Shown here: positions 24,118 to 50,672 of the stretch, piece after piece
Layout: each line of letters begins with the position of its first letter
How positions within the stretch are numbered: position 1 is the stretch's first letter
NCBI GenBank assembly: GCA_038046005.1
Contig: JBBSXB010000005.1
Coordinates: forward strand, 19,732-83,731
From: Nanobdellota archaeon
Lineage (GTDB): Archaea > Nanobdellota > Nanobdellia > Pacearchaeales > GW2011-AR1
Length of the DNA: 64,000 nucleotides
Direction of reading: 5' to 3'
Notes under the pieces: generated by a model
What the model was told of the DNA's origin: nothing
The model's database searches: none
What the model saw: the letters and a program-made list of their open reading frames with translations, nothing else
Translations under genes and position numbers: made by a program

Positions 24118-24477
24118 ATGAAAGTATACGTAGGGAATTTGTCTTTTGCTATCGACAACAACAAGCTTAACGAACTTTTCTCTGAATTCGGAGGAATCGA
24201 AGAAGCTATTGTCATTGTTGACAAGTTTTCAGGCAGATCAAAGGGATTTGGGTTCGTGACTTTTAAGGATGACGATTCAGCTAAGAAAGCCATTTCAGAA
24301 ATGAATGACAAGGAAGTTGAAGGTAGAAAACTTAAGGTTAATGAAGCAAAACCAATGGATCCTGACAGACCAAGACCCCCTAGAAGAGACTTTGGCGGCA
24401 GAGGCTTCGGTGGCGGTGGCGGTAGCGGTAGTGGTGGCGGCGGCAGAAGATTCGGCGGAAGCAGAGACAGATTCTAA
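24118..24477 (+). CDS. RRM RNA-binding protein with Gly/Arg-rich tail
   Basis: RNP2 VYVGNL, RNP1 KGFGFVTF; GGAGG RBS upstream. Confidence 0.95.
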   Translation: MKVYVGNLSFAIDNNKLNELFSEFGGIEEAIVIVDKFSGRSKGFGFVTFKDDDSAKKAISEMNDKEVEGRKLKVNEAKPMDPDRPRPPRRDFGGRGFGGGGGSGSGGGGRRFGGSRDRF

Positions 24478-25223: not shown

Positions 25224-25273
25224 GGTTTTAAATCAGTAACTTTTAAAAGGGGATTTCTGCATTATATTTTCAT

Positions 25274-25386
25274 GCTCGCATGGTCTAGCGGTTATGACTC
25301 ATCCCTGTCGTGACATCTTCTTTATGAAAAAGAAAGGGGAAAATCACAGAACGGATGCGATCCGGGTTCGACTCCCGGTGCGGGCG
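25274..25386 (+). tRNA. tRNA-Asp(GTC) with a 41-nt canonical 37/38 intron (25311-25351)
   Basis: Acceptor GCTCGCA/TGCGGGC; anticodon stem CATCC/GGATG with GTC at 25307-25309; T arm CCGGG-TTCGACT-CCCGG; BHB helix CTGT/ACAG with CGT and AAC bulges. Confidence 0.95.
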
Positions 25387-25480
25387 TAATACATATTAGA
25401 CCAATTTGGTGAGACTCTTTTCCTAACGGATATATTGTATCTCGACTGTCCATATAAAATCCCGAGATCAAGGAAAAGAT

Positions 25481-26632
25481 ATGAAAATCGATCCATATAA
25501 GCACAAGGAAAGATACCTTAATTGGAAAGAATCAGTAAAACAGGGAATTCCGAGCATAAGCAAAGAAAACTCGGAAATTATACTGCAATATCTAAAAGAT
25601 ATGGAAATTGGAGTTAATATTTCTTCAGTTAGTGTGAAAGGCTCAAGAGGATATAATAGACTAAACACTTTAAAGGACAAACTTATATTCTTCTCCAAAA
25701 AGTTTAACACAAGCTTTAATTTGGGCTGTATAATGGAGATTAAAGAGGAACAGTTATTTCAATTCTTTTCAGAGATGGATAAAGGAATCATAAAAAGACA
25801 AGATGGAAATAACTTTATGGGAGTGCACACTTATGTTAAGATATTCAAAGCGTTTTGGCATTGGTATCAGAAAATCGCCAGAAAGCAGGGAATTGAGGTA
25901 AAAGATATTACTTTAGATTTAGATACTAAAGCAAATAAGCCAAAATGGGTTTATCTTACAGAAAAACAAGTTAAACAGCTTTATGATAGGGCAGGAAGTA
26001 GATACAAAGTCCTAATAATGTTCTTATTTGACACAGGAATAAGAGCGCCAACAGAGTTGATTAATATTAGAGTTAGCGATTTATTCAATAATTGCACTGA
26101 GTTGCAAATAAGAGATGAAATAAGTAAAACATTTGGAAGAAGAATTAAATTAATGCTTTGCTCAAACATTCTTAAAGACTATATTCAAGAAAATAATCTT
26201 AAACCAGAAGATCAGTTATTTGCAATAAACCCAACTGTAGTAAACAGATATCTCAAAAATTTAGCAGTGAAGATTTTTGGCAAAGGCATGAGTGATGCAG
26301 GTGAATTATATTCTAGATTATCAATGTATGATTTCAGGCATTGTTCATGTTGTTATTGGCTTCCAAGATATAAATCTGAAAGTGCCTTGAAATATAGATT
26401 TGGATGGAAAAAATCAGATAAAATACATTATTATTCAGAATTATTAGGAATGAAGGACAAAATTTCTGAAGAAGACCTTTTGATTGATATAACTAAAACA
26501 GAAATTGAGAAAAGACTGACAAAAGCTGAAAGAGAAGTTGAATTTTTAACTGAAGATAATCAGCACATGAAAAATCAGATGAAGGAAATTCTAAAATTAA
26601 TCTCCAATGCTAGAGAAATTGTAGCTAATTAA
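25481..26632 (+). CDS. Tyrosine recombinase/integrase 1
   Basis: DTGIRAPTEL (R), SKT (K), YDFRH, FGW, IHYY (Y); C-terminal coiled coil. Confidence 0.92.
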   Translation: MKIDPYKHKERYLNWKESVKQGIPSISKENSEIILQYLKDMEIGVNISSVSVKGSRGYNRLNTLKDKLIFFSKKFNTSFNLGCIMEIKEEQLFQFFSEMDKGIIKRQDGNNFMGVHTYVKIFKAFWHWYQKIARKQGIEVKDITLDLDTKANKPKWVYLTEKQVKQLYDRAGSRYKVLIMFLFDTGIRAPTELINIRVSDLFNNCTELQIRDEISKTFGRRIKLMLCSNILKDYIQENNLKPEDQLFAINPTVVNRYLKNLAVKIFGKGMSDAGELYSRLSMYDFRHCSCCYWLPRYKSESALKYRFGWKKSDKIHYYSELLGMKDKISEEDLLIDITKTEIEKRLTKAEREVEFLTEDNQHMKNQMKEILKLISNAREIVAN

Positions 26633-26636
26633 AAAC

Positions 26637-26871
26637 AGCCACTCGGCATAATAGGACTCTTTTTGGTTGGTGGCTCTTTTTGAAGTGATTATTATACAAG
26701 AAACATTCAAATTAATGGTGACTCTCTAGACCTTAGATTTTTGAAAACCTATTTTTATTAAATCCGACGACAAAATATGAAGAGTCACTCGGCATAATAG
26801 AACTCTTTCTTGGCAGTGACTCTTTTTTGAGATAATTCCTTTATGATAAACACTCAAACTAATTGTGGCTT
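26637..26871. repeat. Two ~89-bp imperfect direct repeats (26637-26725, 26783-26871), each starting with a hairpin plus T-tract
   Basis: AGYCACTCGGCATAATAGRACTCTTT...GTGRCTCTTTTT...AAACAYTCAAAYTAAT in both copies. Confidence 0.85.
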
Positions 26872-26898
26872 TTAACTCCTAAAAAAAGGCCAAAGTGC

Positions 26899-27003
26899 GC
26901 ACCCCCAATTTTGAGTGCTACAAAATAGATTCTCGTCGGCAAAATTACATAAAAATCATCAAGAGTCAGTCGACTTAATATGTATGAATGGGGGTGGTGA
27001 CTC
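26899..27003. repeat. Non-coding block homologous to 50679-50783
   Basis: Colinear GCACCCCC, TCGTCGG, identical TCGACTTAATATGTATG and GGGGTGGTG. Confidence 0.85.
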
Positions 27004-27075
27004 GCTTAAAAAACGCCACCCCCTATAATGGAACTCTTTCTTTACATGAGTTGATTTTTTTATTATAAGATCTTC

Positions 27076-29744: not shown

Positions 29745-29795
29745 ATCCATAAATTTCATCTCGACAAGATTTATAAAGTCGAGAGATCAACACAA
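29745..29795. repeat. Palindromic repeat P (other copies at ~25439, 30901 partial, 31974, 33910, 35150)
   Basis: CATCTCGAC-AAKATTTAWAAA-GTCSRGAGATC-(G)CACACAA. Confidence 0.88.
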
Positions 29796-29945
29796 ATTGT
29801 AAAAAATCAAGGGCAAAAAAGAGTCCCATGATTTTGGTCCAATGTATCTCCGATTCGGTGCGGGCGTAGACTCCTTTTGGAATAATTAAGTGATGTACTT
29901 TTTCTAAATGCAAAAATCTATATATTTCAAGGGATAGACTTTTGT

Positions 29946-30876: not shown

Positions 30877-30937
30877 GTTACACAATCGTGATGCATAATC
30901 CTTAAAAAGTCCAGAGATCGCACACAACCACAACAAA

Positions 30938-31879: not shown

Positions 31880-32236
31880 AAATGTACATAGGTGACTACA
31901 ATATTTAAACATTTCTATTTAGGTGTCTACAAATAACAAAAAATGTAGTCACCCACTGTTATCCATATAGCCTCATCTCGACAATATTTAAAAAGTCCGG
32001 AGATCGCAACACAATCGTATCGAATAGTTTAGGCCGATAATAATCAAAAGAAAAAGACCATCCACCGAATCAACCAAGAGGGTGAGGTCTACGGTGCGGG
32101 CGTAGACTCCTTTTGGAATAATTAAGTGATGTACTTTTTCTAGATTCGAGTGAGCCGATATATTTAAAAATGTAAGATATGATAAATGCTAAAGAGTGTG
32201 TTTAGGCGCTCGGATCAAATTCTGAGATAATTTGAA

Positions 32237-33829: not shown

Positions 33830-33970
33830 GAATATTTATTATTTTATAGATTTATATATTATTTTATTTCGTAAAAACAAAAAATAACTCTCTCTTAATC
33901 CATGCATTCCATCTCGACAAGATTTAAAAAGTCCAGAGATCGCACACAATCGTAAGTAAATCAATTAAGG

Positions 33971-34927: not shown

Positions 34928-35370
34928 AACTTATGCACTCCTTTATCCTTTATAAACCTTACCATTTGGGCAGTATAAAAATATTATATTTCCCCTATAT
35001 AATTAAAAATAGTACTATTTTGGCAGTAAAAAAGTTAAATTTATGCACCATTTTGGCAGTATAATTTTGCTATCTTCCCCTATGGTTTTATAAATGTTTA
35101 TATGAGTTTTTTTAGAACCATAGATGCTTTTATATAAAATTATTCCTTCCTCTCGACAATATTTAAAAATCCCAGAGATCGTACACAACTATATCGGACG
35201 GTTTTAGGCCGATAATAATCAAAAGAAAAAGACCATCCACCGAATCAACCAAGATGGTAAGGTCTACGGTGCGGGCGTTCACGTATTTTGTGAGCCTGAT
35301 GTGATGGACTTTTTCTTAACGGATGATTTTCATCCGATCCCTATATAAAAAACAAGGGCTTAGAAAAAAT

Positions 35371-36537
35371 ATGAAAATAGATCCATACAAACACAAAGAA
35401 AGATACCTTAAATGGAGGGAATCTGTAAAAGAGGGCATTTCAAGGATAAATTCTTACAATTCTGATTTAATTTTAAAATACCTTGATGATATGGAAAACG
35501 GGATGAATGTTGCTAAAGGAAATGTTAAGGGTTCTAGGAGCTATATTCGACTTAATACGCTAAGAGAGAAAATGAGGTTTTTCTCTTTAAGATTCAAGGA
35601 AAGGTATAATCTTGATAAAATAACTGATGTTTCTGAAGAACAGTTATGCGTCTTTTTTTCTGAAATGAAAAGAGGGGTTATTAAAAGAAAAGACGGGAAG
35701 TCATATATTGCTATAGCGTATTCTGTCAAGTGCTTCAAGGCTTTTTGGCATTGGTATCAGAAAATAAGCAAAAAGAGTGGAAAGGAAATTTTAGATATTA
35801 CTTCAGATCTTGATACGAGAGAGGACAAGCCTAAATGGGTTTATTTGACTGAAGAGCAGGTTAAGAAATTATGTGAAAATGCAAAGTTCAATTATCGGGT
35901 TTTAATCACTTTTCTTTTTGATACTGGAATCAGGGCTCCAACAGAGCTGATGAACATAAAAGTTTCTGATCTTTACAATGACTGCAAAGAGCTAAACATT
36001 AGAGAGGAAATCAGCAAAACATTTGGCAGAAGAATAAAACTTATGCTTTGTTCAAATTTCCTTAAAAGTTATATTGAACAAAACGAATTAAAAAAAGAAG
36101 ATTATCTTTTTCAGATAAAGCCTTATGTTGTTAATCAATATCTTAAGAGATTATCAAAAAATCTCTTTGGAGATAAGGAAAGCCCAGCAGGGCAGAGATA
36201 TTCTCAATTAACAATGTATGACTTCAGGCATATCTCTTGTTGCTATTGGCTTCCAAGATACAAATCAGAGTCTGCGTTAAAATTTAGATTTGGCTGGAAA
36301 AAATCTGATAAAATTCATTATTATTCCGAAATGCTTGGAATGAGGGATACAATTTCTGATGAAGATCTTTTAGTGGACATAACAAAGACAGAAATTGAAA
36401 AGAAGCTGTTAAAATCTGAGAATGAAAAGGAAATACTAAATGAACGAGTTCAGCATCTTGAGAAGCAGATGAATGAGATTTTGAGATTAACAAATAAGGT
36501 GGAAGAATTCAGAGTTATAAGATTAAGCGATGACTAA
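35371..36537 (+). CDS. Tyrosine recombinase/integrase 2
   Basis: Paralog of 25481-26632 (MKIDPYKHKERYL, DTGIRAPTEL, YDFRH, FGWKKSDKIHYY); start set by homology. Confidence 0.92.
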   Translation: MKIDPYKHKERYLKWRESVKEGISRINSYNSDLILKYLDDMENGMNVAKGNVKGSRSYIRLNTLREKMRFFSLRFKERYNLDKITDVSEEQLCVFFSEMKRGVIKRKDGKSYIAIAYSVKCFKAFWHWYQKISKKSGKEILDITSDLDTREDKPKWVYLTEEQVKKLCENAKFNYRVLITFLFDTGIRAPTELMNIKVSDLYNDCKELNIREEISKTFGRRIKLMLCSNFLKSYIEQNELKKEDYLFQIKPYVVNQYLKRLSKNLFGDKESPAGQRYSQLTMYDFRHISCCYWLPRYKSESALKFRFGWKKSDKIHYYSEMLGMRDTISDEDLLVDITKTEIEKKLLKSENEKEILNERVQHLEKQMNEILRLTNKVEEFRVIRLSDD

Positions 36538-36658: not shown

Positions 36659-39406
36659 ATGAAATTAAGTGAAGCAGAAACAAGGAAAAAGTTAATTGAT
36701 CCAGTTTTAGATAGAGTTGGCTGGAAAATTAATGGGGGTTATGTTAAAGAAGAGATTAACCCCGTTAAATCTAAATTTCAACTTAAAGAATATATTGGTC
36801 GTGAAGCTGGAATAGAAAGAAATGTGGATCGATTTATAGATTATTTACTCTTAGATGAAGATAGAAGCCCTCTAGCAATAATTGAATCCAAGAAAACATC
36901 AGTTGATGTAGAAAAAGGAGAAATTCAGGCAAGAACTTATAGGGATGATGTTGAAAAACAAATTGGAGTAAAAATACCCATTTTTCTTACAAATGGAAAA
37001 ACTTGGTATTATGTTGATAATTTAGACAGAAGAAGACAAATATTACTTCCATTTAATCAAAAAGATCTTCACAGAATTGTTAGTTTGATGAAAAAAAAGA
37101 AAGATCCTGCAAATGTAAAGATTAATACAAAAATAGTGGATAGAAAAAGAGGAATAGAAGCTGTGAAGATCGTCTTGGAACATTTTTCAAAAGGATATAG
37201 AGAGGCATTAATTAATATGGCGACAGGAACAGGAAAAACAAGAGTTGCCATGGCAATAATTGAAGGATTAATAAAAGCAGAATATGTGCAGAAAATATTA
37301 TTTGTTGTTGATAGAATTTCTTTAGGAAATCAAGCTAAAGAAGAAGGGTTCAAAAAATTCTTTCCAGATAGCCCAATTTGTGAATTAAACGAAGAAGGAT
37401 ATTCAGATACAGCAAGATTTTATGTTTCAACTGTTCAAACACTTATGTCTTCACAAAAACCTAGAGGTAAGTTTTACGAAAAATTTGGTTCTGGAGCATT
37501 TGATTTAATTATTTTTGATGAAGCCCATAGATCTTATTATGATAGAAATAATGACATATTCAAATATTTTGATGCCTTGAAAATAGGGTTAACTGCAACT
37601 CCTTCTTCAGAAGATTCAAAAGACACTTTTGAATTATTTAATTGTGAAAAGGGGAAACCAACTGTCAAGTATGATTATTGGGACGCAGTAAATGATAAAG
37701 TTCTTGTTCCTTATGTTGCTGATATTATCGAAACCAAAGTTTTATCTCTAGGGATAGAAGGGAAAAAATTAAGTAAAGAGTTACAACAGGCATTAAAATT
37801 ACAAGAAGAAGAACCAGAAAAGTTTCAAACTCCCGGCTCTAAATTTGAAAGGCATTTTACAGATGAGAAAACTAATGAATTAATAATCAGAGAGTTTGTG
37901 GATAGATGTTATAAATCAGATGATAATAGACCTTGCAAAAGTATTTTTTTCTGTGCAAGTGTTAAACATGCAGAAGCATTAGAAATATTATTTCAAAAAT
38001 TATATCCTCTTTTAGCAAAAGATGTTAAGGTTATTACCTCAGATAAATCCCGTTACACAGATGAGGTTAAGAGATTTATAAAAAGAGACAGTCCAAGAAT
38101 TGCTTTATCTGTAGGAGTATTAGACACAGGAATAGATGTCCCAGAGATAATGAACTTAGTTTTTGTTAAGCCAGTCATATCTTCAATTAGATTTTGGCAG
38201 ATGTTGGGGAGAGGAACTAGAAGTATTTCTGCTTGTGAAAATAAACAATGGCTTCCAACAAATAAGGATGGACAACATATAAAAGAAGATTTTCTAATCT
38301 TGGACTTTAAATTTGGAGATTGGTCAAATGTTCTTCAACATAAGCTAAATGTTTCAAAGCAAAGATCATCAGGAACAGACGCAAAAACAAGAATTTTCTT
38401 GGAGCAGGTAGATACTTTAGAAAAAAACCTAAATGAGAAAGAAAAGAAAATTGTAGAAAAACAAATAAGAGACACAATTAAAGAGATTGACATTGATTCT
38501 CCTTTAGTCATGGAGAAAAGAGAAATTATTAAGAAAATTGTCTCTTCTAAGTTTGATTTGAAGGAACATGTGAAAGAATTGAGAGAAGAAATTGCCCCTC
38601 TTTTGATTTATTCTTCATCAGAAAATGCGAAAGTATACGGATTTATTTCTAGATGTATTAAGTTATTTGACCACATTAAAACAAATAACAAAGAAAAAAT
38701 TGCTAAGATAGAAGATTTTGTTGTTAAAAGAGCTGAAGCTATTTGGGACAAAAACTTAGATACAATAAAAGAAAAAAGAGATGATCTTATAAAAATCCAG
38801 AAAGAACCTTTTTGGGAAGAGATTACATTTGAAGATGTTGATTTTTTAGTTAGAGATATTGCTCCTTTAATGATTTTTTATGAAGAGGAAAGAAAAAATA
38901 TGCTGAAGATTAATGCTCCAGACATGGTTATGAAAGTAGATAAAGAAATTATGGAAATAAAAGAAGATAAAGACTTTAAGAAATTCATTGAAAATAATAT
39001 TTTAATGAAAAGGATAAAAGATGGAGAAGGAGTTAATTCTAAAGAGCTTTTAGAGATAGAAAGTAAGCTTAAACAGCTTAATCCTGCCCTTACGATAGAT
39101 AATATTCAGCAAAGCAAAGATTTTGTGTTATTTTTAAGGGAGCTAATTGAAGTAAAAGGATTGCCTGACCCTCAAGAAATGATTAGGTGGGAATTTGATA
39201 AGTTTGTTAAAGACAGAAATGAACATTATAACTCAGAACAACTTAAATTCTTAAGACTTTTAGAGCAAGTTTTTATAAGGGCTAAACATATAGAATTAAA
39301 GAATTTCGCAGAACATCCTCTTGCAGATGCTCGTCCACTTGATATTTTCACAAAAGAACAACTCGAATTAATTGTTCAAAAATGCAACAAATTGAAATGG
39401 AAATAA
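36659..39406 (+). CDS. hsdR: Type I restriction endonuclease subunit R
   Basis: EAETR..LID..L...GW, DYLL..AIIESK nuclease, MATGTGKT, DEAH, LTAT, QMLGRGTR. Confidence 0.93.
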   Translation: MKLSEAETRKKLIDPVLDRVGWKINGGYVKEEINPVKSKFQLKEYIGREAGIERNVDRFIDYLLLDEDRSPLAIIESKKTSVDVEKGEIQARTYRDDVEKQIGVKIPIFLTNGKTWYYVDNLDRRRQILLPFNQKDLHRIVSLMKKKKDPANVKINTKIVDRKRGIEAVKIVLEHFSKGYREALINMATGTGKTRVAMAIIEGLIKAEYVQKILFVVDRISLGNQAKEEGFKKFFPDSPICELNEEGYSDTARFYVSTVQTLMSSQKPRGKFYEKFGSGAFDLIIFDEAHRSYYDRNNDIFKYFDALKIGLTATPSSEDSKDTFELFNCEKGKPTVKYDYWDAVNDKVLVPYVADIIETKVLSLGIEGKKLSKELQQALKLQEEEPEKFQTPGSKFERHFTDEKTNELIIREFVDRCYKSDDNRPCKSIFFCASVKHAEALEILFQKLYPLLAKDVKVITSDKSRYTDEVKRFIKRDSPRIALSVGVLDTGIDVPEIMNLVFVKPVISSIRFWQMLGRGTRSISACENKQWLPTNKDGQHIKEDFLILDFKFGDWSNVLQHKLNVSKQRSSGTDAKTRIFLEQVDTLEKNLNEKEKKIVEKQIRDTIKEIDIDSPLVMEKREIIKKIVSSKFDLKEHVKELREEIAPLLIYSSSENAKVYGFISRCIKLFDHIKTNNKEKIAKIEDFVVKRAEAIWDKNLDTIKEKRDDLIKIQKEPFWEEITFEDVDFLVRDIAPLMIFYEEERKNMLKINAPDMVMKVDKEIMEIKEDKDFKKFIENNILMKRIKDGEGVNSKELLEIESKLKQLNPALTIDNIQQSKDFVLFLRELIEVKGLPDPQEMIRWEFDKFVKDRNEHYNSEQLKFLRLLEQVFIRAKHIELKNFAEHPLADARPLDIFTKEQLELIVQKCNKLKWK

Positions 39407-39720
39407 AAAAATTACTGTCAAAATATTCAAGAGAAGATATAGGCTTTGGAAAAACTGAGAATTATATTCTGGAGAGGATAAATGCAACTAAAGAAGATGT
39501 AGCAACTGATTTGCTTTCTCTCGAAAATTTAGAATTGGTGGAAGAGCAGAAAAGAAATAATGAAATAAGATATGTGTTATTTTTCGTTTATTCAAAAAAG
39601 AGCGGAAGGGTTTATGTAATAACTTTAAGAGAAAAATTGAGGATAATCACAGCTTATCCGCTTGGCAAGAAAACACTCTCTAAATACAATAAAAGAAGAT
39701 TTATAAATTCCAAGAGGTAG
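39397..39720 (+). CDS. Putative toxin (DUF4258/BrnT-like RNase fold)
   Basis: Basic ~107-aa protein, LRIITAYP, directly upstream of a DUF2283-like gene. Confidence 0.55.
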   Translation: MEIKKLLSKYSREDIGFGKTENYILERINATKEDVATDLLSLENLELVEEQKRNNEIRYVLFFVYSKKSGRVYVITLREKLRIITAYPLGKKTLSKYNKRRFINSKR

Positions 39721-39728
39721 TAAGTATT

Positions 39729-40082
39729 ATGTATAAATTTCATTATGATGAGGAGAATGATATCTTGTCTATATACGATTCTCCTAGAAAAGTAAAGGAA
39801 AGCTTAGAAGTGTCTGAAAACATAGTTATAGATTTGGATAAAAATGACAGAATTAACGGTATAGAGATAATGGATGCAGGCGAGTTTTTCGGCTCTTTTA
39901 ATCCAGAGATAGACAAGGATCTTTTATCGGAGCTTGACTCTGCAAAGATTGAATACAAGAGCTTTAGGAGTCAATGGATGCTTTTAGTTGTTTTAAGTGC
40001 TAAGGGCAGACAGTTTTCCCAGCCAATGCCTCCTCTGAGAAAAACAGAGTTTTCAAGCCCCATATTAGCTAATAATTGGTAA
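39729..40082 (+). CDS. DUF2283-like protein (putative antitoxin)
   Basis: YDEENDILSI...IVIDLDKNDRINGIEI. Confidence 0.8.
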   Translation: MYKFHYDEENDILSIYDSPRKVKESLEVSENIVIDLDKNDRINGIEIMDAGEFFGSFNPEIDKDLLSELDSAKIEYKSFRSQWMLLVVLSAKGRQFSQPMPPLRKTEFSSPILANNW

Positions 40083-40101
40083 AAAGGTGTATACACCTTT
40101 T
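40082..40101. promoter_or_regulatory. Perfect 20-bp palindrome next to a TATA box
   Basis: AAAAGGTGTATACACCTTTT followed by GAAAGATTTAAATA. Confidence 0.7.
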
Positions 40102-40138
40102 AGGAAAGATTTAAATAGTTCTTGATTTTATTTTTCTC

Positions 40139-40318
40139 ATGGTTTTGAAAGATCACGATCTAAGTGGGGAAGAAAGGAAAATTGTTTCTACGAGACTATA
40201 CAAAAGTGAATTTCTTTTTTTCAAAAAGCTTTGTGAACAAGAAGGCAAAAAAATAAATACAAAACTCCGAGAGATGATAAGGAAGGAAACAGGCGTAGAG
40301 GAGAAAAATGAGATTTGA
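40139..40318 (+). CDS. Small ribbon-helix-helix-like protein (59 aa, not in the ORF track)
   Basis: KIVSTRLYKSEFLFFKKLCEQEGKKINTKLREMI; overlaps the start of the next gene. Confidence 0.6.
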   Translation: MVLKDHDLSGEERKIVSTRLYKSEFLFFKKLCEQEGKKINTKLREMIRKETGVEEKNEI

Positions 40319-41210
40319 AAAGTTTATTATCGGATTAGATGATAATGGGAAAGAGATTAAATTCACCTGCGATGAATCAAAATTGGCTAATAACTTTGGA
40401 AAAAACCCTGAAGCTCCAAATTTTCTAACAAGAGTTTTTTTCAAGAAAGATGTTTTAGATAAGTACTATGGTAAACCTTCAAAATATTCTGTTAGAGATG
40501 GGTATTTGTTTTATACTAGAGAAGATGGTATTAATGAATGGGGGATGCCCATAGACAATAATGTCCGAGGTTGTATTATGGCTTATTTAGGAGACCTAGC
40601 TAAACTACCATCTGATGAGCAAAAACACTGGAAAATTTACAATATCGTAGAAGGCAGTTTTAGTTCAGTTTCAGTTATGAGAGACTTTAAAGCTGAACCC
40701 TGTTCTCCAACTGACGCTGCTTTATATTTTAAGGGAGAATTTGAGTCTCTCAACGAAAATTGGAAGAAGAAAAATGGATGGAATATATTCAAACCGTTGA
40801 ACTTAGCTGATGAACATCACGTTAAGACCTTAAGAGTGCCAAACGATGAGCAGAAAGAGTTTGATGAGGTGGTACTCTCTTTGAATAAAATACTAATTGA
40901 CTCTTTAAATGTTGAAAAAATGAAAGATAAAATAATATTTGATAAGGATGACAAGTCTATTTCCATACTACAAAAATATCTTGAACAAAAATATAAAATT
41001 AGATTTTCCCAAATGATTGAATTTCTAAAAAACTTGCAAAACTTAAGATCGAGCGGTAGTGCCCATAGGAAAGGAGATAATTACGAAAAAGCGTACAAAA
41101 AATTTGATAAAGGAAGTTTATCAAAAACGTTTGAAAGCATTTTAATTGAAGCAATAACTACTCTGAATACCCTTCAAAATAGAATTGGGGGAGATAAAAA
41201 TGTCAGTTGA
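40308..41210 (+). CDS. Hypothetical protein with C-terminal HEPN-like Rx5H motif
   Basis: LKNLQNLRSSGSAH in a helical C-terminal region. Confidence 0.65.
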   Translation: MRFEKFIIGLDDNGKEIKFTCDESKLANNFGKNPEAPNFLTRVFFKKDVLDKYYGKPSKYSVRDGYLFYTREDGINEWGMPIDNNVRGCIMAYLGDLAKLPSDEQKHWKIYNIVEGSFSSVSVMRDFKAEPCSPTDAALYFKGEFESLNENWKKKNGWNIFKPLNLADEHHVKTLRVPNDEQKEFDEVVLSLNKILIDSLNVEKMKDKIIFDKDDKSISILQKYLEQKYKIRFSQMIEFLKNLQNLRSSGSAHRKGDNYEKAYKKFDKGSLSKTFESILIEAITTLNTLQNRIGGDKNVS

Positions 41211-41775
41211 ATGGTGGGCTTTAGGTATTTCAATAGTTGCCTTGTTAGGGACGCTAACTAAGGATTTTTTTATTCCTATTTTTTTTAAACCTACATTAAA
41301 AATAGAAGGAATTGATGACGGCGAGTGTATTCAGGATGCCAGTGATAATTTGAATAACATTACAAGGTGGATAAGATTAAGATTGATTAACAAAGACGGA
41401 TTCTTTTCAAGGACTGCAAAAGATTGTTATGTTAAGTTATTGTGGGTTAAAAATAGTAATGGGACAAAAATAACGCCTTTTGAATCCTTGCCTTTAACGT
41501 GGGTTAGTTATGATGATTTCTCTGGTGGAAAGTATGATCTTGCTAGAGGAGAATATCACATGATAGACTTAGTCCATGAGTTTCCTCAGCGAAGATTTCT
41601 AAGATTTAAGCTTGCAGGCATACCTCTCGAACTAATAAAAGAGTCCGAGTCTAAACTCTCGCCCGGCATATATTCTTTTGGGATAGCCGTTTATGGAGGC
41701 AATTTCAAACCAATTAGAAAGATATTCAAAGCAAGAATAACAAATAAATTTGGAGAATTAAATTTTGTAAAATGA
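41200..41775 (+). CDS. Hypothetical protein with N-terminal TM and beta-rich domain
   Basis: MSVEWWALGISIVALLG; overlaps both neighbours. Confidence 0.7.
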   Translation: MSVEWWALGISIVALLGTLTKDFFIPIFFKPTLKIEGIDDGECIQDASDNLNNITRWIRLRLINKDGFFSRTAKDCYVKLLWVKNSNGTKITPFESLPLTWVSYDDFSGGKYDLARGEYHMIDLVHEFPQRRFLRFKLAGIPLELIKESESKLSPGIYSFGIAVYGGNFKPIRKIFKARITNKFGELNFVK

Positions 41776-42863
41776 ATCAAGAAATTAAACTAAAAGACTT
41801 ATTTGAATTGAAATACGGTTCATCCCTTCCAGAAAAAACTAGAATAAATGGCTCAGTGTTGGTTTTTGGATCAAATGGCATTGTTGGATCTCACAATCAA
41901 GCAATAACTAAAGGAAAAACCATTATTGTTGGTAGAAAAGGATCAATAGGGAAAATAAATTTCTCAGAGAAATCTTGTTTTCCAATAGATACCACATATT
42001 ATATAGATGAGACTAAAGAACCCTGCAATCTAAAATGGCTTTATTTTATCTTGAAAAAACTAAATCTAGAGTCTTTGAACAGAGCTGCTGCTGTTCCGGG
42101 TTTAAACAGAAATGATGTTTATCAAAAGAAGATAATTCTGCCATCAATTGAAAAGCAAAACAAAACAGTTGAAATTTTGGAAAAATCAAAAAAACTCAAA
42201 GAAAGAAGCAATAATGCTAATGACTTACTTGATGAATATCTTAAAGCTATTTTTAATGAGATGTTTTTGAAGGAAAAGAATAAGTTTGAAAAAGTAACTT
42301 TAAAAGATATCGGAAAATTATCTATGGGTGGAACACCTTCAAAGAGTATAAAAGAATATTGGGAAAATGGAACAATAAACTGGATGAAATCAGGAGATAT
42401 TAAAGGAGATTTTATTACATCTATCTCTAATAAAATAACACAGAAAGGTTTTGATAAATCAAATACTACTCTCTATCCGAAAGATACTGTAGTAATAGCA
42501 TTAAATGGACAAGGAAAAACAAGAGGAACTACTGCAATTTTAAAAATCGAAACTACTAGTAATCAGTCAGTTGTTGGAATTATGCCTGATAACAAAAAAA
42601 TACTCTCGGAATATTTGCATTATAATTTAAAATTAAGATATAATGAATTAAGAAGATTAACGGGGGATAATGAAAGAAGTGGACTAAACTTATCTATTCT
42701 TAGAGGTTTTAAGATGCTATTGCCTCCTATCCAACTTCAACAAAAATTTGCTGAGATAGTTGAACAAGTAGAAAAAATGAAGAAAAATATTAATAAAACT
42801 GAACAAAACGGAGATGAATTATTTAATTCTTTAATGCAGAAAGCATTTAGGGGGGAGTTATAA
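41772..42863 (+). CDS. hsdS: Type I R-M specificity subunit
   Basis: Two TRDs, LPSIEKQ and LPPIQLQ conserved helices, SLMQKAFRGEL. Confidence 0.94.
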   Translation: MNQEIKLKDLFELKYGSSLPEKTRINGSVLVFGSNGIVGSHNQAITKGKTIIVGRKGSIGKINFSEKSCFPIDTTYYIDETKEPCNLKWLYFILKKLNLESLNRAAAVPGLNRNDVYQKKIILPSIEKQNKTVEILEKSKKLKERSNNANDLLDEYLKAIFNEMFLKEKNKFEKVTLKDIGKLSMGGTPSKSIKEYWENGTINWMKSGDIKGDFITSISNKITQKGFDKSNTTLYPKDTVVIALNGQGKTRGTTAILKIETTSNQSVVGIMPDNKKILSEYLHYNLKLRYNELRRLTGDNERSGLNLSILRGFKMLLPPIQLQQKFAEIVEQVEKMKKNINKTEQNGDELFNSLMQKAFRGEL

Positions 42864-42864
42864 A

Positions 42865-43872
42865 ATGATATTCATAAAATTTATTATAGAAAAATTAGCC
42901 AATATCTGTTTAAGCATTTCTAATGTGTTTAATCTTTTTAGTATAAAATTGATTGATAAGCTCAATATTAATATCTATAAACCAAAATATGAAGAAAAGA
43001 TATTCCAAAATACAGAAAGTATAAATAAAGATACTCAGCAGATATTAAAAAATGATGAAGATATAAAAAGATATAAAGAAAAAGAAAAACTAATCAAGGA
43101 GTTGATAAATAGAAAAATTATTAATGTGAACAATCTAAATAAAGTTTCTAATTCGGAACATTTTATTGTAATCCCAAAAATACACTTAAACATAAATGAT
43201 AAAAAGGTAAGAAAAATTTTGTTTGGAGAAGAAGGTTCTTTTAAAAATTCCATATTTAGTTATTTTGATCAAGGAGATTTTGTTAATTTGGGTAAAAAAT
43301 TCTCACCAATTTACTTAAAAGATAAGTACAGCATAAAACAACCATATAGAAATATATCTATTTTTAAGAAGATATTGGATAATAAACTAAAAGATTTAAT
43401 CTACAAAGATAATAAAGAGATAGTGAGATTAATTCAAAGACATAAAAATAGAAAAGAAATAAAGGTCTTTTTTGAAGGAGAAGACGTGTCTAATAAGAAG
43501 TTTTTATTTTTAGATTATATGATTATTTCCTCTTTAAATTTAAATAAAGAAAACATAACTCTTGAAGAAGGTGTTCACAAACAATTTCTTTTTAAGATTT
43601 TGACAAAAGAAGCCCAAAATATAAAAATTAAAGAAGTGATATTGGAAAGTGGATTAAAATTATTTCTTAATGAAGAGTACTTAAATTTTATTAAAGACAA
43701 ACTACTAAAAAACGAATCAACGATAAAACAAAAATTGAAAATAGACAATTTTTTTGAAGATATTAACAAAAATGAATTTGAGAAAGTATTAAAACAACTT
43801 TTAGAAAATGATTATCAACAAATTTATTCAGACAATTTTTTTAAACTTCAAAGTCTTATTAAAGAATTATAA
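42865..43872 (+). CDS. Hypothetical protein, very AT-rich
   Basis: 335-aa K/N/I-rich ORF between hsdS and hsdM. Confidence 0.65.
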   Translation: MIFIKFIIEKLANICLSISNVFNLFSIKLIDKLNINIYKPKYEEKIFQNTESINKDTQQILKNDEDIKRYKEKEKLIKELINRKIINVNNLNKVSNSEHFIVIPKIHLNINDKKVRKILFGEEGSFKNSIFSYFDQGDFVNLGKKFSPIYLKDKYSIKQPYRNISIFKKILDNKLKDLIYKDNKEIVRLIQRHKNRKEIKVFFEGEDVSNKKFLFLDYMIISSLNLNKENITLEEGVHKQFLFKILTKEAQNIKIKEVILESGLKLFLNEEYLNFIKDKLLKNESTIKQKLKIDNFFEDINKNEFEKVLKQLLENDYQQIYSDNFFKLQSLIKEL

Positions 43873-43920
43873 AATGAACACAAAAAAGAAATAAATAAAC
43901 TGGAAGTAAAACCAATAAAC

Positions 43921-45375
43921 ATGTTACACACAGAATTAAAATCAAAAATAAGAAAATTATGGGATAAATTTTGGAGCGGAGGAATTAGCAATCCTCTTCA
44001 GGCAATAGAGCAAATATCCTATCTTATTTTTATGAAGAAACTTGAGGACAAAGATATTCTTGATGAACAGAATGCAACCTTGAAGGGAATTAAATTTAAA
44101 TCAATCTTTGAAAAACACGAAAATTGCAGATGGTCAGAATGGAGCGAATATCCTTCTGACAAGATTCTACCCCATGTTCGAGATGTTGTCTTTCCATTTA
44201 TGAGAACTCTGGGAGCAGAAAACTCCCATTATAACAACTATATGAAAGACGCTTCATTTTCTTTGCCTACTGCCTCATTATTGATTGAAGCTGTAAATAT
44301 AATTAATGATCTGCATATAAAAGAACAGAATCAAGATGCTCAGGGAGATATTTATGAATATCTTTTATCAGAATTAACAACTGCTGGAAAAAATGGGCAG
44401 TTTAGAACTCCGAGACATATAATCAAAATGATGGTTGAGTTGGCAAAACCTGAATTAGGAGATAGAATTTTAGATCCTGCATGTGGGACAGCAGGATTTT
44501 TAGTTAATGCTTATGAATATATTTTAAGATCCAATCAAAAGAATGAAATAAGCACACTCACCCCCCAAAAAAAGAAAATGTTGGATGAAGAGTCTTTATA
44601 CGGCTATGATATTGATAGAACAATGGTAAGAATCGCTGTCATGAACCTAATGATGCACGGAATAACTAATCCTAACATAGTTGGAGAAGATACTTTGTCT
44701 AAAAGGTATAATGAAAAAGGAGTTTATGATTTAATCTTGGCTAATCCTCCATTCAAAGGCTCTATTAATGAAAGTGAAAAGTCAGATGAGCTTACTATAA
44801 GCACAAGCAAGACAGAATTATTATTCTTAGAATTAATGTACAATTGTCTTTCAATCGGAGGAAGATGCGCAGTCATAGTCCCAGATGGAGTTTTATTTGG
44901 CAATTCAAATGCTCATAAATCAATAAGGAGGCTATTACTAGAAAAATGTAGGCTTGATGCAATAATTTCTATGCCTTCTGGGATCTTTAAGCCATATGCA
45001 GGAGTTTCAACAGCAGTTTTATTCTTTACTAAAGGAGAGCCTACAGAGAAAGTTTGGTTTTATGACATGGAAGCAGACGGTTTTAGCTTAGACGATAAAA
45101 GAAATGAGATAAAAGAGAATGATATTCCTGATATTTTAGAAAGATTTGAAAAAAGAAATAAGGAAGAAAATAAAGATATATCTAAAAAATCTTTTTTTGT
45201 TTCAGTCGATGATATAAAATCTAATGAGTGGGACTTATCTATTAACAAATATAGAAAAGAAAAGCATGAAGAAGTAATTCATAGAAATAGCAAAGAAATA
45301 ATAAAAGAAGCTAAGAAAGAAGTAAAAGAACTCTTAGAAGGTTTTGAAGAGCTAGAAAAAGTAGTTAAAATTTAA
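43921..45375 (+). CDS. hsdM: Type I R-M methyltransferase subunit
   Basis: GQFRTPRH, DPACGTAGFL, ANPPF, PDGVLFG. Confidence 0.95.
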   Translation: MLHTELKSKIRKLWDKFWSGGISNPLQAIEQISYLIFMKKLEDKDILDEQNATLKGIKFKSIFEKHENCRWSEWSEYPSDKILPHVRDVVFPFMRTLGAENSHYNNYMKDASFSLPTASLLIEAVNIINDLHIKEQNQDAQGDIYEYLLSELTTAGKNGQFRTPRHIIKMMVELAKPELGDRILDPACGTAGFLVNAYEYILRSNQKNEISTLTPQKKKMLDEESLYGYDIDRTMVRIAVMNLMMHGITNPNIVGEDTLSKRYNEKGVYDLILANPPFKGSINESEKSDELTISTSKTELLFLELMYNCLSIGGRCAVIVPDGVLFGNSNAHKSIRRLLLEKCRLDAIISMPSGIFKPYAGVSTAVLFFTKGEPTEKVWFYDMEADGFSLDDKRNEIKENDIPDILERFEKRNKEENKDISKKSFFVSVDDIKSNEWDLSINKYRKEKHEEVIHRNSKEIIKEAKKEVKELLEGFEELEKVVKI

Positions 45376-46013
45376 TCTTCCAACCTCCCCCTAGCCATTT
45401 CAACATACTTCTCATCAAGATCCACTCCTATCCAATCCCTATCTGTTTCTTGACAAGCCACACAAACTGAGCCACTGCCACAAAAAGGATCTAAAACAAT
45501 ATCTCCTTTCTTTGAGCTATGTTCTATCATCTTTGAAATCAAATCCACTGGTTTTTCATGAGGGTGAGTTAGCTCATTATGATTAATATGGCTGGAACTT
45601 TGTACATCAGAGAAATTAGTCAGATTATATTTAGGCTTTCCTTTTTCCAAAACAACAATTAATTCATACTGATGTCTGAATGCCCAACCCAAACCAAAGT
45701 TGTGCTTTTTCCAAACAATGACATGCCTTATCTTAAATTTAGTATATCTCAAAATAAACTCTGTTAAAAAGGGATAATGCTTCCAGTTTGTAAAAATATA
45801 CAAAGACCTGTTTCTTTTTAGAACTCTGTAACATTCAACCAAAGCCAAACAGTTAATCAAAGGGTTTTCGTTGTTTCTTATAGTTTTATTGTTCCATCCA
45901 TAAGCAACATTATCTCCGTAGGGTGGGTCGCTAACGATCAAATCTATGCAATTATTGGGAAGAGTTTTCATAAACTCAATGCAGTCTCCCTTAATGATTT
46001 TGTTTGTTTCCAT
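45372..46013 (-). CDS. Beta-class N6A/N4C DNA methyltransferase
   Basis: DPPY precedes HPHEKP and LDPFCGSG. Confidence 0.92.
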   Translation of the reverse strand: METNKIIKGDCIEFMKTLPNNCIDLIVSDPPYGDNVAYGWNNKTIRNNENPLINCLALVECYRVLKRNRSLYIFTNWKHYPFLTEFILRYTKFKIRHVIVWKKHNFGLGWAFRHQYELIVVLEKGKPKYNLTNFSDVQSSSHINHNELTHPHEKPVDLISKMIEHSSKKGDIVLDPFCGSGSVCVACQETDRDWIGVDLDEKYVEMARGRLED

Positions 46014-46182
46014 TTTTTAAAATCTCAATAAGCATTTTTTCAATATTATCTAGTTTAGATGGAGCATCCAGCTTCTGCCTGCAAAGTTCGGCGAGAGTTA
46101 TTTTTTCTTCATTCGCTTTTTCTTTCAGCTTCTGAAGAATTGAGCTCTCCAAAGTCAGGTGTATGTGTGCGTTCTTTTTCAT
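45991..46182 (-). CDS. Small ribbon-helix-helix/CopG-like protein
   Basis: HIHLTLESSILQKLKEKANEEKITLAELCRQKL. Confidence 0.7.
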   Translation of the reverse strand: MKKNAHIHLTLESSILQKLKEKANEEKITLAELCRQKLDAPSKLDNIEKMLIEILKNGNKQNH

Positions 46183-46285
46183 TTTTTCTCCTTAAAATTT
46201 CAATAAGCTCTTTTAATTTACATATGATCTCATCTCCAATGTCTTTGTTGATTTGATTTTCCATGAAAAGCAGATTCTTTTGAGA

Positions 46286-46365
46286 TATATAAAAAATCGG
46301 AGATTTTTTTGTGGTCAGAAAAGTAGTCAAAAAAGTAGTCATTTTTTTCTCCGAGTTTATTTATA
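46286..46365. promoter_or_regulatory. Divergent control region with inverted TATA-containing arms and three repeats at 12-bp spacing
   Basis: TATATAAAAAATCGGAG ... CTCCGAGTTTATTTATA; GTRGTCA at 46311, 46323 and 46335. Confidence 0.65.
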
Positions 46366-46387
46366 ATAGCTCCATCGCACACAAATC

Positions 46388-46534
46388 ATGGGATGCGCAT
46401 TATGTGGGAAGGAAACTGACGAAGATTTTTGTTGGAACTGTCTTGCATTTCTCAGGCGTAAGTATCCCAAAAATAAAAACTTTGAAAGGAGGTTAAAATG
46501 GCACAAAAAACAGGCAAAGGAGCTGGAAAAATAA
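46388..46534 (+). CDS. Small Zn-finger protein (48 aa, not in the ORF track)
   Basis: MGCALCGKETDEDFCWNCLAFLRRKYP; overlaps the pilin start. Confidence 0.6.
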   Translation: MGCALCGKETDEDFCWNCLAFLRRKYPKNKNFERRLKWHKKQAKELEK

Positions 46535-46815
46535 TAGCCGTGTCGCTTTTAATTTTGTTCATGCAGATAGCTTTTGTAAAGGCTGCAGATTTCAGCGAGA
46601 TTCTAAAGCCGTTGCAGACAATTTATGATTTAGTGAAATATGCTGCAACGGTTATTGCTGGATTGATAATGCTGTTTGCAGGATTAACTTACATCACAAG
46701 TGGATCTGATCCTAAGAAAAGGGAAAATGCAAAGAATATGGTTATGTATGTTATTATAGGGCTTATGGTTATTTGGGCAGCACCCTTTGTTGTTGACTTG
46801 ATTCTAGGAAACTAA
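46498..46815 (+). CDS. TrbC/VirB2-type pilin
   Basis: Signal peptide, two hydrophobic helices around AGLTYITSGSDPKKRENAK; GGAGG RBS. Confidence 0.85.
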   Translation: MAQKTGKGAGKIIAVSLLILFMQIAFVKAADFSEILKPLQTIYDLVKYAATVIAGLIMLFAGLTYITSGSDPKKRENAKNMVMYVIIGLMVIWAAPFVVDLILGN

Positions 46816-46816
46816 A

Positions 46817-47629
46817 ATGGCTTGTGACATAACAAATTTAGGCTCATGCATAGCTGATGCTTTGTTTGGATTTATACTTAATATTCTAAACTCAGCATCA
46901 AAGCCTTTTTCAGATATTATCCACAAACTCATGACCGAGCCAGTAAATATTTCTGCATTTTCAAGCATCTGGGCAATTATAGTTTACATCCTCTCCATGT
47001 TTTACGGGCTTCTTATTGTATGGATTGGGTTGAAGTTTATTGTTTCTGGAGAATCGCCAGAGCAAAGAGAAAAAGCAAAGGCAGATTTGAAGAATACAAT
47101 TATAATGATGATTTTAGTGCAAGGTAGTTATTATCTTTATGATTTAATTCTAGCTGTTTCATCTGCATTGACAAAAGTTATATTTGATATGATAAACAGC
47201 AGTTTTTTCCAGATAACATTTGAAAGTTCTTCAAATTTTGGATTGGATTTGCTCTTTGGAGTTATTTTCATCCTGCATCTTATTGTTGTAATGATAATTC
47301 TTCTTTTGAGATATATTTTTGTAAGTGCAGGAGTGATACTTTTTGCAATAGGAATATTTTTTTATTTTATTCCTTTTCTGCATCATTATGGAAAATTAAT
47401 ATTAAACAGCTTAGGCACTTTGATATTTCTGCCGTTCTTTTTCTCAATAATATTTCTTGTGGGATCAAAGCTCACAGGATTAAACGGATTCAACAATGCA
47501 AAAATGCTCATAATGATAGGAACTCTTGACTTGGTTATAATATCAACTTTTCTTCTGCTACTTTTTGTTGTTGTGAAAGCCGTCACAAAATTAAAGCCAG
47601 TGATTTCAGTTGCAAAAGCCTTAGTATAA
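46817..47629 (+). CDS. Polytopic membrane protein, VirB6/CedA-like
   Basis: Many TMs, pilin-like GLKFIVSGESPEQREKAK, position between pilin and VirB4. Confidence 0.65.
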   Translation: MACDITNLGSCIADALFGFILNILNSASKPFSDIIHKLMTEPVNISAFSSIWAIIVYILSMFYGLLIVWIGLKFIVSGESPEQREKAKADLKNTIIMMILVQGSYYLYDLILAVSSALTKVIFDMINSSFFQITFESSSNFGLDLLFGVIFILHLIVVMIILLLRYIFVSAGVILFAIGIFFYFIPFLHHYGKLILNSLGTLIFLPFFFSIIFLVGSKLTGLNGFNNAKMLIMIGTLDLVIISTFLLLLFVVVKAVTKLKPVISVAKALV

Positions 47630-47630
47630 A

Positions 47631-50600: not shown

Positions 50601-50672
50601 GGTGATGCTGTTGATAAAAGATATGTAAAATTAAGACTTGATAAGCTCCTGAAATTGGCAAAAAAGCCCTAA
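47631..50672 (+). CDS. PrgI/VirB3-like + VirB4 ATPase + C-terminal PD-(D/E)XK-like domain fusion
   Basis: KEKIVFGLTFKQL plus TMs; AQSGGGKS; LLIDEAW; RKFNLG; C-terminal KPDIVF...YAIEIETG. Confidence 0.85.
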   Translation: MYEIPQQLEYKEKIVFGLTFKQLAYAFGFFPLVFFLLFKINASWAVRIFLAIYPASLAVGFIFFDLDEKLKKWISWFMLREISAKREKGKIDKLWEMISEKNKKFLIERWKRMKKDKEGFWFKLSKWLNRNRIKEFFSIIKVEDNLIYTKKNKIAVLKVEPINFDIKHEKEKEAITLAFQKLLNSLDFPIQIVMTTDNLSLESYLSNLGEKSHSKQIFHEYEKHIKGVVKNESVSNRNFYLAIPEKTNLDIQIKICEERLHALNLKTYRLNDKQLEKLFSNFNDAEKIENSPFYVSIKDNIIRTIYAHGYPRSVEAGFLDKIVSSVGNFNLSIHIEPMPLESTMVLLNRELQKQRADLYAAKIKDQINPSLEIKYKDTLNILRNLQKGDEKLFNVSLYIACTSDRKDKLDLLTKKVESELNSLLIIPKWTDFQMIQGYKSCLPLCEDSINMKRNITTKGLSTFFPFTSSFFKFDKTGIWFGLNRNKIPIIRDVFKLPNPNGLVLAQSGGGKSYFCKLLISRYLLNNTKVMVIDLQGEYNALVSHFKGQTINLSRDSPTIINPLDLMGHNYLEKRLSLLDLMKIMLGELTDIQRAYIDRAITETYKRKGITKNPDTWNNEPPILGDLIKVLDSMEKKGSKLEQSTLASLSNRLDMYVHGVFSFLNRKTNINFNNNFVSFDVSNLPAQIKPAIMFLVLDYIYMKMKSNLNRKILLIDEAWLLLSRAEDAGYIFEIVKTCRKFNLGLLLINQEVEGMLDSKAGKSVLANSSYTFLMRQKPAVIDTICKTFHLSNNERTHLLTANVGEGLLIMEDDHSILRVIASPEEHKLITTNPDELKNFKVQPKKAVYKDVNIRINEDKRYFRKKLLGKDEINFLLSKEYKICEYKSLLTDRMETFLLQPRHNESPMHLFMTKNIAEYLEKNGIEVELYTTVKPDIVFGINGKRYAIEIETGSYLSRMKGFKEKVETLNKNYDEWFFVVTNKNKVKIYKKFGDAVDKRYVKLRLDKLLKLAKKP

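Follow-up and report, generated by a model that had tools for sequence, protein, structure and literature searches.

Which form of DNA does an integrase read when the attachment sites of its elements are long imperfect palindromes, the duplex or a folded single strand? The question is raised by a 64,000-nucleotide stretch of contig JBBSXB010000005.1 of a Nanobdellota archaeon (the window, with a G+C content of ~33%), whose 875 kb genome is assembled in 15 contigs and belongs to a DPANN archaeon. At least five elements (E1–E5) are stacked there at the 3' end of an intron-bearing transfer RNA (tRNA) gene, delimited by five copies of a short core. An original prediction, made from the letters of the window, took the palindrome at the E2/E3 joint as the equivalent of the attachment (att) site of a free element, attP, and proposed either symmetric arm sites or a folded single-stranded DNA (ssDNA) substrate. 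Our comparisons of sequences suggest that the palindromes are likely to be symmetric-arm attP sites of an uncharacterised family of DPANN tyrosine integrases, with arms that would dock the integrase on double-stranded DNA. Below, the arm at the tRNA-proximal end of an element is called P' and the arm at its far end P. The target gene, the core copies and the joints are as follows.

25274..25386, + strand: intron-bearing tRNA gene, the integration target, with a 41-nt intron (T-stem 3' strand 25374-25378; acceptor 3' strand 25379-25385; discriminator G25386)
25376..25387, + strand: core copy 1, CGGTGCGGGCGT, attL of E1 and 3' end of the tRNA
29856..29867, + strand: core copy 2, joint J2 (E1/E2) between the E1 P arm and the E2 P' arm, non-cognate and not palindromic
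32092..32103, + strand: core copy 3, joint J3 (E2/E3), attP of E2 and E3
35267..35278, + strand: core copy 4, joint J4 (E3/E4), where the following base is T instead of A

The core (12–13 bp, identical to the tRNA 3' end) spans the end of the T-stem, the acceptor 3' strand and the discriminator. The 12-mer GGTGCGGGCGTA starts at 25377, 29857 and 32093, with a one-mismatch copy at 35268, and the fifth core copy lies on contig C11; 0.21 matches are expected by chance and 0/100 shuffles reached five. Direct repeats of the 3' end of the target bound each element and the tRNA is restored, as tRNA targeting demands. Each attP has a single core copy, with no inverted copy nearby. The tRNA itself was missed by default ARAGORN and by the Rfam gathering scan. 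The intron option was required, with which ARAGORN placed it at 25273-25387 and typed it as Ser(aga). Read by hand, and from its likeness to the intron-bearing tRNA-Asp genes beside integrases in L001 and L004 (L-numbers designate related loci), it is probably a tRNA-Asp(GTC). We rejected a DDE transposon with inverted ends and target duplication as the source of these repeats, since the repeat is always the tRNA 3' end and the autonomous units carry a tyrosine integrase; a Pfam scan of the main open reading frames (ORFs) gave no transposase family.

The elements of the stack differ in size and content.

E1, 4.5 kb: integrase (IntE1, 25481-26632) and secreted protease-like proteins
E2, 2.2 kb: ion-channel-like protein and Fic protein, without integrase
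E3, 3.2 kb: 187-aa protein, methyltransferase and Fic protein, without integrase
E4, at least 30 kb, continuing off the contig onto C11: integrase (IntE4, 35368-36537), type I restriction-modification (R-M) genes and genes like those of type IV secretion systems (T4SS)
E5, beginning on C11: third integrase, ~30% identical to IntE1 and IntE4, and a PIN/AbrB pair (read from sequence)

E2 and E3 are 97.6% identical over their first 41 bp and 87.6% identical over their last ~120 bp, and the right end of E4 (on C11) matches their right ends at 87–89%. The interiors of these three elements are unrelated, so that only ends are common (the right ~120 bp in all three and the left 41 bp in E2 and E3), and the Fic proteins of E2 and E3 are just 30% identical. 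Because these ends are shared, J3 and J4 are equivalents of attP, which bears out what had been proposed for the E2/E3 joint.

Around these cores, the arms and their boxes are placed as follows.

25389..25421, + strand: E1 P' arm, Box 1 TTAGACCA and Box 2 GTGAGACTCTTTT
29817..29847, + strand: E1 P arm, an inverted copy of the E1 P' boxes (mirror score 15)
29869..29905, + strand: E2 P' arm, matching the E3 P' arm
32049..32065, + strand: E2 P arm Box 2, AGAAAAAGACCATCCAC, 30-46 bp left of T32095
32071..32081, + strand: E2 P arm Box 1, with CCAA at 32074-32077, 18-21 bp left of T32095
32087..32107, + strand: inner 7-7-7 palindrome GTCTACG-GTGCGGG-CGTAGAC, centre C32097
32110..32118, + strand: E3 P' arm Box 1, CTTTTGGAA, with TTGG at 32113-32116, 18-21 bp right of T32095
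32126..32141, + strand: E3 P' arm Box 2, GTGATGTACTTTTTCT, of the E4-clade type, 31-46 bp right of T32095
35224..35266, + strand: E3 P arm, near-identical to the E2 and E4 P arms
35280..35316, + strand: E4 P' arm, Box 1 TTTTGTGA and Box 2 GTGATGGACTTTTTCT

Each arm is ~35 bp long and consists of a proximal Box 1 (of TTTTGGCA or TTGTGAT type) and a distal Box 2 (of GGGATGTAC, GAGACTC or GGGGTGTC type, followed by a T-run), and the two arms of a site are mirror images. The ends of E2 and E3 carry the E4-type Box 2. The boxes lie 12–46 bp from the centre on the element side only and are absent from the tRNA side of attL. All strings on which the original prediction was built (32087-32107, 32049-32065, 32126-32141, 25389-25421 and the reverse complement of 29817-29847) were located exactly.

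We folded the joints as DNA and found that self-complementarity is limited to cognate pairs of arms (J2, J3, J4, E1 attP and attL were compared). With fold windows cut at the arm ends, which flatters the z values, J3 folded at −17.4 kcal/mol (z −4.2) on the + strand and −13.6 kcal/mol (z −3.1) on the − strand, J4 had z values of −4.4 (+) and −3.3 (−), and the reconstructed E1 attP had −2.7 (+) and −4.4 (−). The non-cognate J2, which joins an E1 arm to an E2 arm, gave +1.2 and −0.1, and attL gave −0.2 and −0.9. The long imperfect palindromes at cognate joints are thus confirmed on the reconstructed sites, and J2 and attL lack them. A core-anchored banded mirror-alignment score was 15 for E1, 14 for J3 and 13 for E4, values that 2/4000, 5/4000 and 8/4000 random genome anchors reached. 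It could be argued that the joints are chance palindromes, or repeats misjoined in the metagenome assembly: perfect 7-7-7 repeats are common in the window (13, against 8.0 ± 2.7 in 30 shuffles), the inner palindrome alone is unremarkable, and contigs do break at repeated joints. However, such long-arm scores are rare, the architecture recurs in dozens of independent assemblies, and in contig pieces of two studies the joints are either covered or coincide with contig ends inside the shared repeats. We consider chance or misassembly to be extremely improbable.

The register of the mirror symmetry points to the position of the crossover. In the frame C1 G2 G3 T4 N5 N6 G7 G8 G9 C10 G11 T12 for the core, position 4 is T32095 in J3. 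Outer-box complementarity about this position in 14 dereplicated sites was 0.79 at 16 nt, 0.93 at 20 nt, 0.64–0.71 at 23–25 nt and 0.50–0.71 at 33–36 nt; about position 6, the centre first proposed, it was at most 0.5. Gapless alignment of 16 natural sites showed 60.8% standard pairs between mirrored positions about position 4, concentrated in the boxes, and sliding the partner by 1–3 columns left 38–48% paired. Shuffles gave 54.4 ± 1.4% (0/500 reached 60.8%), a figure that is generous since five rows of the L146 group are mutually related. Changes on both sides of the arms occurred in 60 cells in these sites, against 42 ± 5 in shuffles. The boxes of J3 mirror each other exactly about T32095 (CCAA at 32074-32077 with TTGG at 32113-32116, and 32049-32065 with 32126-32141), and this centre lies 2 bp left of C32097. 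From the family-wide register, we predict a 7-bp overlap near CGGTGCG (32092-32098), centred on T32095. Its left edge (C32092) is the left edge of attP/attB identity for all three types of P arm found here. For archaeal tyrosine recombinases, a review states that the effective site often lies towards the 5' end of the att identity block (PMC8371274). J2 has an E1-type left side and an E2-type right side, and the joint of L165 (genome G003, contig 15), with an E1-type P arm, a core and an E4-type P' arm, is likewise a mosaic with the element types in the order of J2; both imply a crossover within the core.

This places the centre elsewhere than the 7-bp core GTGCGGG of the original prediction. 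That string is present as it was quoted, but it is doubtful as the core, since the mirror centre of the family is T32095 and only E2/E3 have the inner 7-7-7 palindrome in perfect form. Across 17 sites, the inner 7-nt flanks matched at 7/7 positions in E2/E3, at 5/7 in E4 and L003, at 3/7 in E1 and at 2–4/7 in the other 13. Two of the seven inner pairs (G2:C10 and C1:G11) are supplied by the tRNA-derived core.

Is this architecture restricted to one stack? Relatives of the integrase were confirmed 145 times in species-representative genomes and at least 530 times among metagenome contigs. All close relatives are in DPANN archaeal metagenome-assembled genomes labelled Pace-, Woese- or Nanoarchaeota, and no relative was found among IMG/VR viral contigs, which hence offered no free circular attP. 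We compared 160 related loci, in most of which the integrase gene lies 73–100 bp past the 3' end of a tRNA gene (Asp, Glu, Ser, Gly, Gln, Tyr and others). The P' arm is conserved in the 75 attL sites that could be anchored on the core, a set that was not dereplicated: T+8 (91%), T+11 (72%), G+12 (85%), C+14 (64%), TT+18/19 (76–77%) and GGG+23-25 (68–81%). Family-wide, Box 1 is TtTTGgCA, or TTGTGAT / TTGTCTA, and Box 2 is GGG followed by a variable part and a T-run. The E1-type Box 2 (GAGACTCTTTT) was present in 13/14 loci with an integrase of at least 80% identity to IntE1 and in 1/78 others; those 14 loci have seven different core sequences, and all 14 have a GGACCA-like Box 1 (read by eye). 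The E4-type Box 2 (GATGTA[A]CTTTT) was found in 2/2 loci with an integrase of at least 72% identity to IntE4. As far as these alignments go, box type tracks the clade of the integrase and not the target tRNA. The symmetric arm sites that had been proposed for one joint are therefore supported and generalise, with two boxes per side in relatives at other tRNAs and a type that follows the clade.

The far arm was studied at cores without a tRNA body to their left, of which there are 34 loci or elements (29 after dereplication at 85%). The analysis was anchored on the core and took the place of an unanchored scan for the best inverted repeat upstream of integrases, which separated loci with and without tRNA little (means of 8.4 vs 9.8). 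Mirror scores were higher at cognate sites than at attL (Mann-Whitney p = 1.6e-4). The inverted order Box 2-Box 1 was seen by eye in L013, L051, L074, L103 and L106, and also in L045, a 4.6-kb element with both ends available. Overall, inverted-box P arms occur in independent lineages (E1, E2-E4, L003, L013, L018, L045, L051, L074, L086, L103, L106 and the L146 group). In the case of L001 (integrase 78% identical to IntE4), the genome has on the same contig, 23 kb away and adjoining the same core, a far-end P arm that is a 33/35 inverted copy of P', the spacer between the boxes included. When the full attP architecture was written as one strict regular expression, only L051 matched. Some loci have unusual arrangements. 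L003 (=L110, L111), L018, L115 and L133 hold mini-elements of ~70–260 bp between two cores, mostly a P' arm fused to a P arm, and their paired core copies differ at positions 5-6. In L005 and L012 an inverted 3' half of tRNA-Asp (anticodon loop to 3' end) precedes the integrase, and in L005 a full tRNA-Asp also follows it; this is possibly an inversion or a longer identity block.

Mirror-image arms raise the possibility that the substrate is single-stranded, i.e. that an attP strand entering the cell in this form, for example by conjugation, folds into a hairpin which is then recombined with the tRNA site. The cognate attP strands do fold well below shuffles (z about −2.7 to −4.5), two-sided arm changes are frequent, L001 mirrors even its inter-box spacer, and E4 encodes T4SS-like pilins and a VirB4-like ATPase. 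Yet the crossover inside the core would fall in the central ~23–35 nt that stay unpaired at the tip of the fold, and the binding sites on its two sides would be fused into a single duplex. The pairing of mirrored positions stops short of two-thirds, the sequence of the boxes is kept by integrase clade, and the more stable strand is not the same in E1 (−) as in E2-E4 (+). Moreover, a Pfam scan of the main ORFs found no relaxase in the available part of E4, another part of which is an assembly gap, and transfer genes are absent from E2 and E3.

The two single-stranded systems to which the joints had been likened make the difference clear. In integron attC sites the crossover takes place in the stem, at the outer R box, and structure is kept while sequence is free. 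The joints studied here resemble them in being imperfect palindromes between promoter-less and integrase-less gene units in an array. In contrast to attC, the unit boundary is at the centre of the palindrome instead of the outer R box, there is no IntI-type enzyme, sequence is conserved by clade and pairing amounts to only ~61%; neither of the attC traits was found. With the attP(+) of CTXphi (formed from attP1 and attP2) they share a tyrosine recombinase and a self-complementary attP region. There, two inverted dif-like sites ~90 nt apart pair to form the site, with the crossover in the stem (PMC5357621). Here, one core lies in the loop, and paired inverted copies were not found. A folded attC- or CTXphi-like substrate is for these reasons not supported, and we regard it as very unlikely.

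Two of the integrases of the stack are encoded in the window.

25481..26632, + strand: IntE1, tyrosine integrase of E1, 383 aa (Pfam PF00589 Phage_integrase, 35.7 bits against a cutoff of 27.1)
35368..36537, + strand: IntE4, tyrosine integrase of E4, 389 aa from the conserved MKIDPY start

They are 65.7% identical, and R189, K217, R287, H288, W310, H317 and Y319 are invariant in 35/35 sequences. An AlphaFold2 model of IntE4 built from 35 sequences (mean predicted local distance difference test score 81) shows the two-domain fold of tyrosine recombinases: residues 9-136 form five N-terminal helices, which are followed by a catalytic domain and, at the C-terminus, by a helix of 50 residues. The folds that match it best are those of XerA, Cre, Tn1549 Int, lambda Int and XerH; a sequence search of the PDB with the integrase returned nothing meaningful (best E 0.5). 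The arms as observed have a defined anatomy, are conserved, carry clade-specific boxes and mirror each other in a fixed register, from which we infer that the integrase binds the boxes, where it cleaves and that it can mobilise elements in trans. The attP would be a short asymmetric core, equal to the tRNA 3' end and restoring the tRNA on insertion, flanked by two mirror arms. Integrase protomers would bind Box 1 and Box 2 on duplex DNA, possibly bridged by the long C-terminal helix, and build a symmetric intasome with a crossover centred on core position 4, the T-stem/acceptor junction. Insertion would part the arms, with P' ending up beside the tRNA and P at the distal end of the element, and repeated insertion into the regenerated core would build up a stack. 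Where two neighbours are of one type (E2/E3, E3/E4), their joint would then re-form the palindrome; where they differ in type (E1/E2), it would not.

Several observations weigh against this reading. Only 10 of the 29 dereplicated joints exceed the maximum score (8) of all 75 attL controls, namely E1, E2/E3, E4, L003, L018, L086, L146, L153, L154 and one more at the threshold. Cognate and permuted pairs of arms did not differ significantly in mirror score (Mann-Whitney p = 0.14), a weak contrast that results in part from joints that are non-cognate (like J2) or true attR sites, which are many, and in part from permuted pairs that share Box 1 and include sister sites. L059, with both ends available, repeats a Box-2-like octamer in direct orientation. 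The centre of the inner 7-7-7 palindrome of E2/E3 is 2 bp off that of the outer boxes, so that the two point to different positions for the overlap. The IntE4 model lacks a separate lambda-like beta-sheet arm-binding domain, so that Box 2 may be read by some other part of Int or by another protein. Finally, the T-runs of the boxes could serve transcription termination instead.

This last point can be extended to the arms as a whole, which might be end-of-element transcription signals (T-run terminators) or operator sites of a regulator or excision factor. Oligo-T runs terminate archaeal transcription. Box 1 opens with a T-run 8–11 nt past the tRNA end and Box 2 closes with T5, an unrelated tRNA on contig C9 is directly followed by a T-run, and a promoter-like motif reads to each joint from the left. 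Against this, termination leaves the conserved positions other than T (G+12, C+14 and GGG+23-25) unexplained, as it does the clade-specific Box 2 and the exact mirror register about the core. We therefore find it unlikely that signals of this kind account for the arms; only the T-runs are likely to serve both purposes. The promoter-like motif consists of TCTCGAC, a TATA-like TTTAAAAA and then GAGATCGCACACA, and is found at the right end of E1-E4, reading towards the joint. Its copies are at 25441-25471, 29757-29790, 31975-32007, 33910-33941 and 35150-35181, and also at 30897-30928. It is directly upstream of int in E1 and in many relatives, and the internal copies in E2 and E3 run antisense into the Fic genes.

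Several known systems come close to such symmetric-arm sites. The attP of phage lambda and its like share a short core identical to a small attB, extra element-side sites (12–46 bp from the crossover here) and a target at the 3' end of a tRNA gene. In lambda, the arms lack this symmetry and carry direct as well as inverted arm sites, together with sites for IHF, Xis and Fis, whereas the arms here are mirror images with two boxes each, and the N-terminus of the IntE4 model is all-helical. With loxP (13-8-13) and dif (11-6-11) the sites share inverted repeats about a short centre (at the E2/E3 joint even a perfect 7-7-7 inner repeat) and an integrase fold nearest to XerA and Cre. Unlike in loxP and dif, the inverted repeats of the family begin ~12 bp from the centre, with 2–4/7 inner matches in 14/17 sites, so that inverted repeats directly flanking a 6–8 bp overlap are not a trait of the family; tRNA sequence has to make up one of the inner flanks, which keeps the two from being symmetric. 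The non-partitioning pNOB8-type and the SNJ2-type integrases also combine an intact int gene beside attP, a tRNA target and a short identity block (13 bp in SNJ2; PMC8371274), but symmetric two-box arms are not described for them in the sections of that review covered here. The words DPANN and Woesearchaeota have 0 occurrences in the same review, and literature searches at the level of listings and abstracts brought up no description of the att sites of this DPANN integrase family.

How would E2 and E3 move? They lack an integrase and yet have E4-type ends, for which reason we propose IntE4 as the enzyme that acts in trans. By comparison of ends and content, they were probably moved by it in the manner of cis-mobilisable elements (CIMEs). 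CIMEs, and site-specific accretion at the att sites of integrative conjugative or mobilisable elements (ICESt1/ICESt3 of Streptococcus and others), are defined in PMC5704250. The likeness lies in the tandem stacking at the 3' end of a target gene and in E2 and E3, which keep attL and attR, are without integrase and transfer genes, and stand beside the integrase-bearing E4 with its T4SS-like genes. The differences are an archaeal host, and cargo unrelated to that of E4 with only the ends shared; an origin by decay of an integrative and conjugative element is not implied by the sequence.

A contig of sequencing run X9, from a different study, is 90–99% alike to the window and has the same arm and core pieces flanking other DNA. 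Its order is the tRNA, 1075 other bases, a core with an E2/E3-type P' arm, 592 other bases, a P arm with a core, 598 other bases and then the E2 Fic gene, which indicates that the same ends bound different content there. With the mosaic joints J2 and L165, this is indirect evidence that attP and attB recombine. Data from sequencing runs are contigs, which show presence only and break at the repeated joints, and the circle junction of an excised E2 or E3 is identical to J3 and hence indistinguishable in them. No empty target site was present in the covered parts of the run contigs that we examined. Since the E2/E3-type units share only ends, the same ends flank other cargo in X9, and the promoter-like motif (the int promoter in many relatives) points towards every joint, one may speculate that they are gene cassettes captured, stacked and exchanged at the tRNA by the integrase of a conjugative-type element and expressed from the left neighbour. 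By analogy, they would form an archaeal, double-stranded counterpart of the integron. This is a tentative idea, and we think it rather improbable.

The remainder of the stack and of the locus can be described briefly. Integrase genes begin 63–100 bp past the core in E1, E4 and E5. That of E5 (366 aa) begins 63 bp after the fifth core copy on the minus strand of C11 and, with two small ORFs downstream that are PIN- and AbrB-like by sequence, extends from about 31123 down to 28000. The far end of E5 and the right flank of attB (B') were not found, and the assembly has no sixth core copy. The cargo of E4 (36659-50672) includes the type I R-M genes hsdR, hsdS and hsdM, with several ORFs of unknown family lying among them. 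It also encodes an N4/N6 methylase, two proteins like T4SS pilins and a VirB4/TraG-like ATPase of 1013 aa whose N-terminus resembles PrgI. Hairpin-containing repeats of ~55–70 nt, with stems of the GAGTCAC...GTGACTC type around TAATA, occur at 26627-27058 and 50709-50787, in four copies just past the E1 integrase gene and one past the VirB4-like gene of E4. Directly upstream of the tRNA (24118-24477) is a gene whose 119-aa product has an RRM_1 domain (E 1.3e-23) and a tail rich in glycine and arginine. Elsewhere in the genome, contigs C4 (1446-1703) and C8 (88131-88268) have fragments that match only integrase residues 1 to 45-79 at 49–65% identity, probably remnants of decayed elements to judge from their sequence.

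DPANN archaea have tiny genomes and no genetic tools, their gene exchange is poorly known, and this integrase family is abundant among them. A compact symmetric attP of ~95–110 bp would make both the crossover position and the clade-specific recognition boxes testable. The hypotheses set out here bear on integrase specificity, on the spread of integrase-less Fic/methyltransferase cassettes and on tools for site-specific integration in archaea. They also suggest that a palindromic att joint need not imply a folded substrate.

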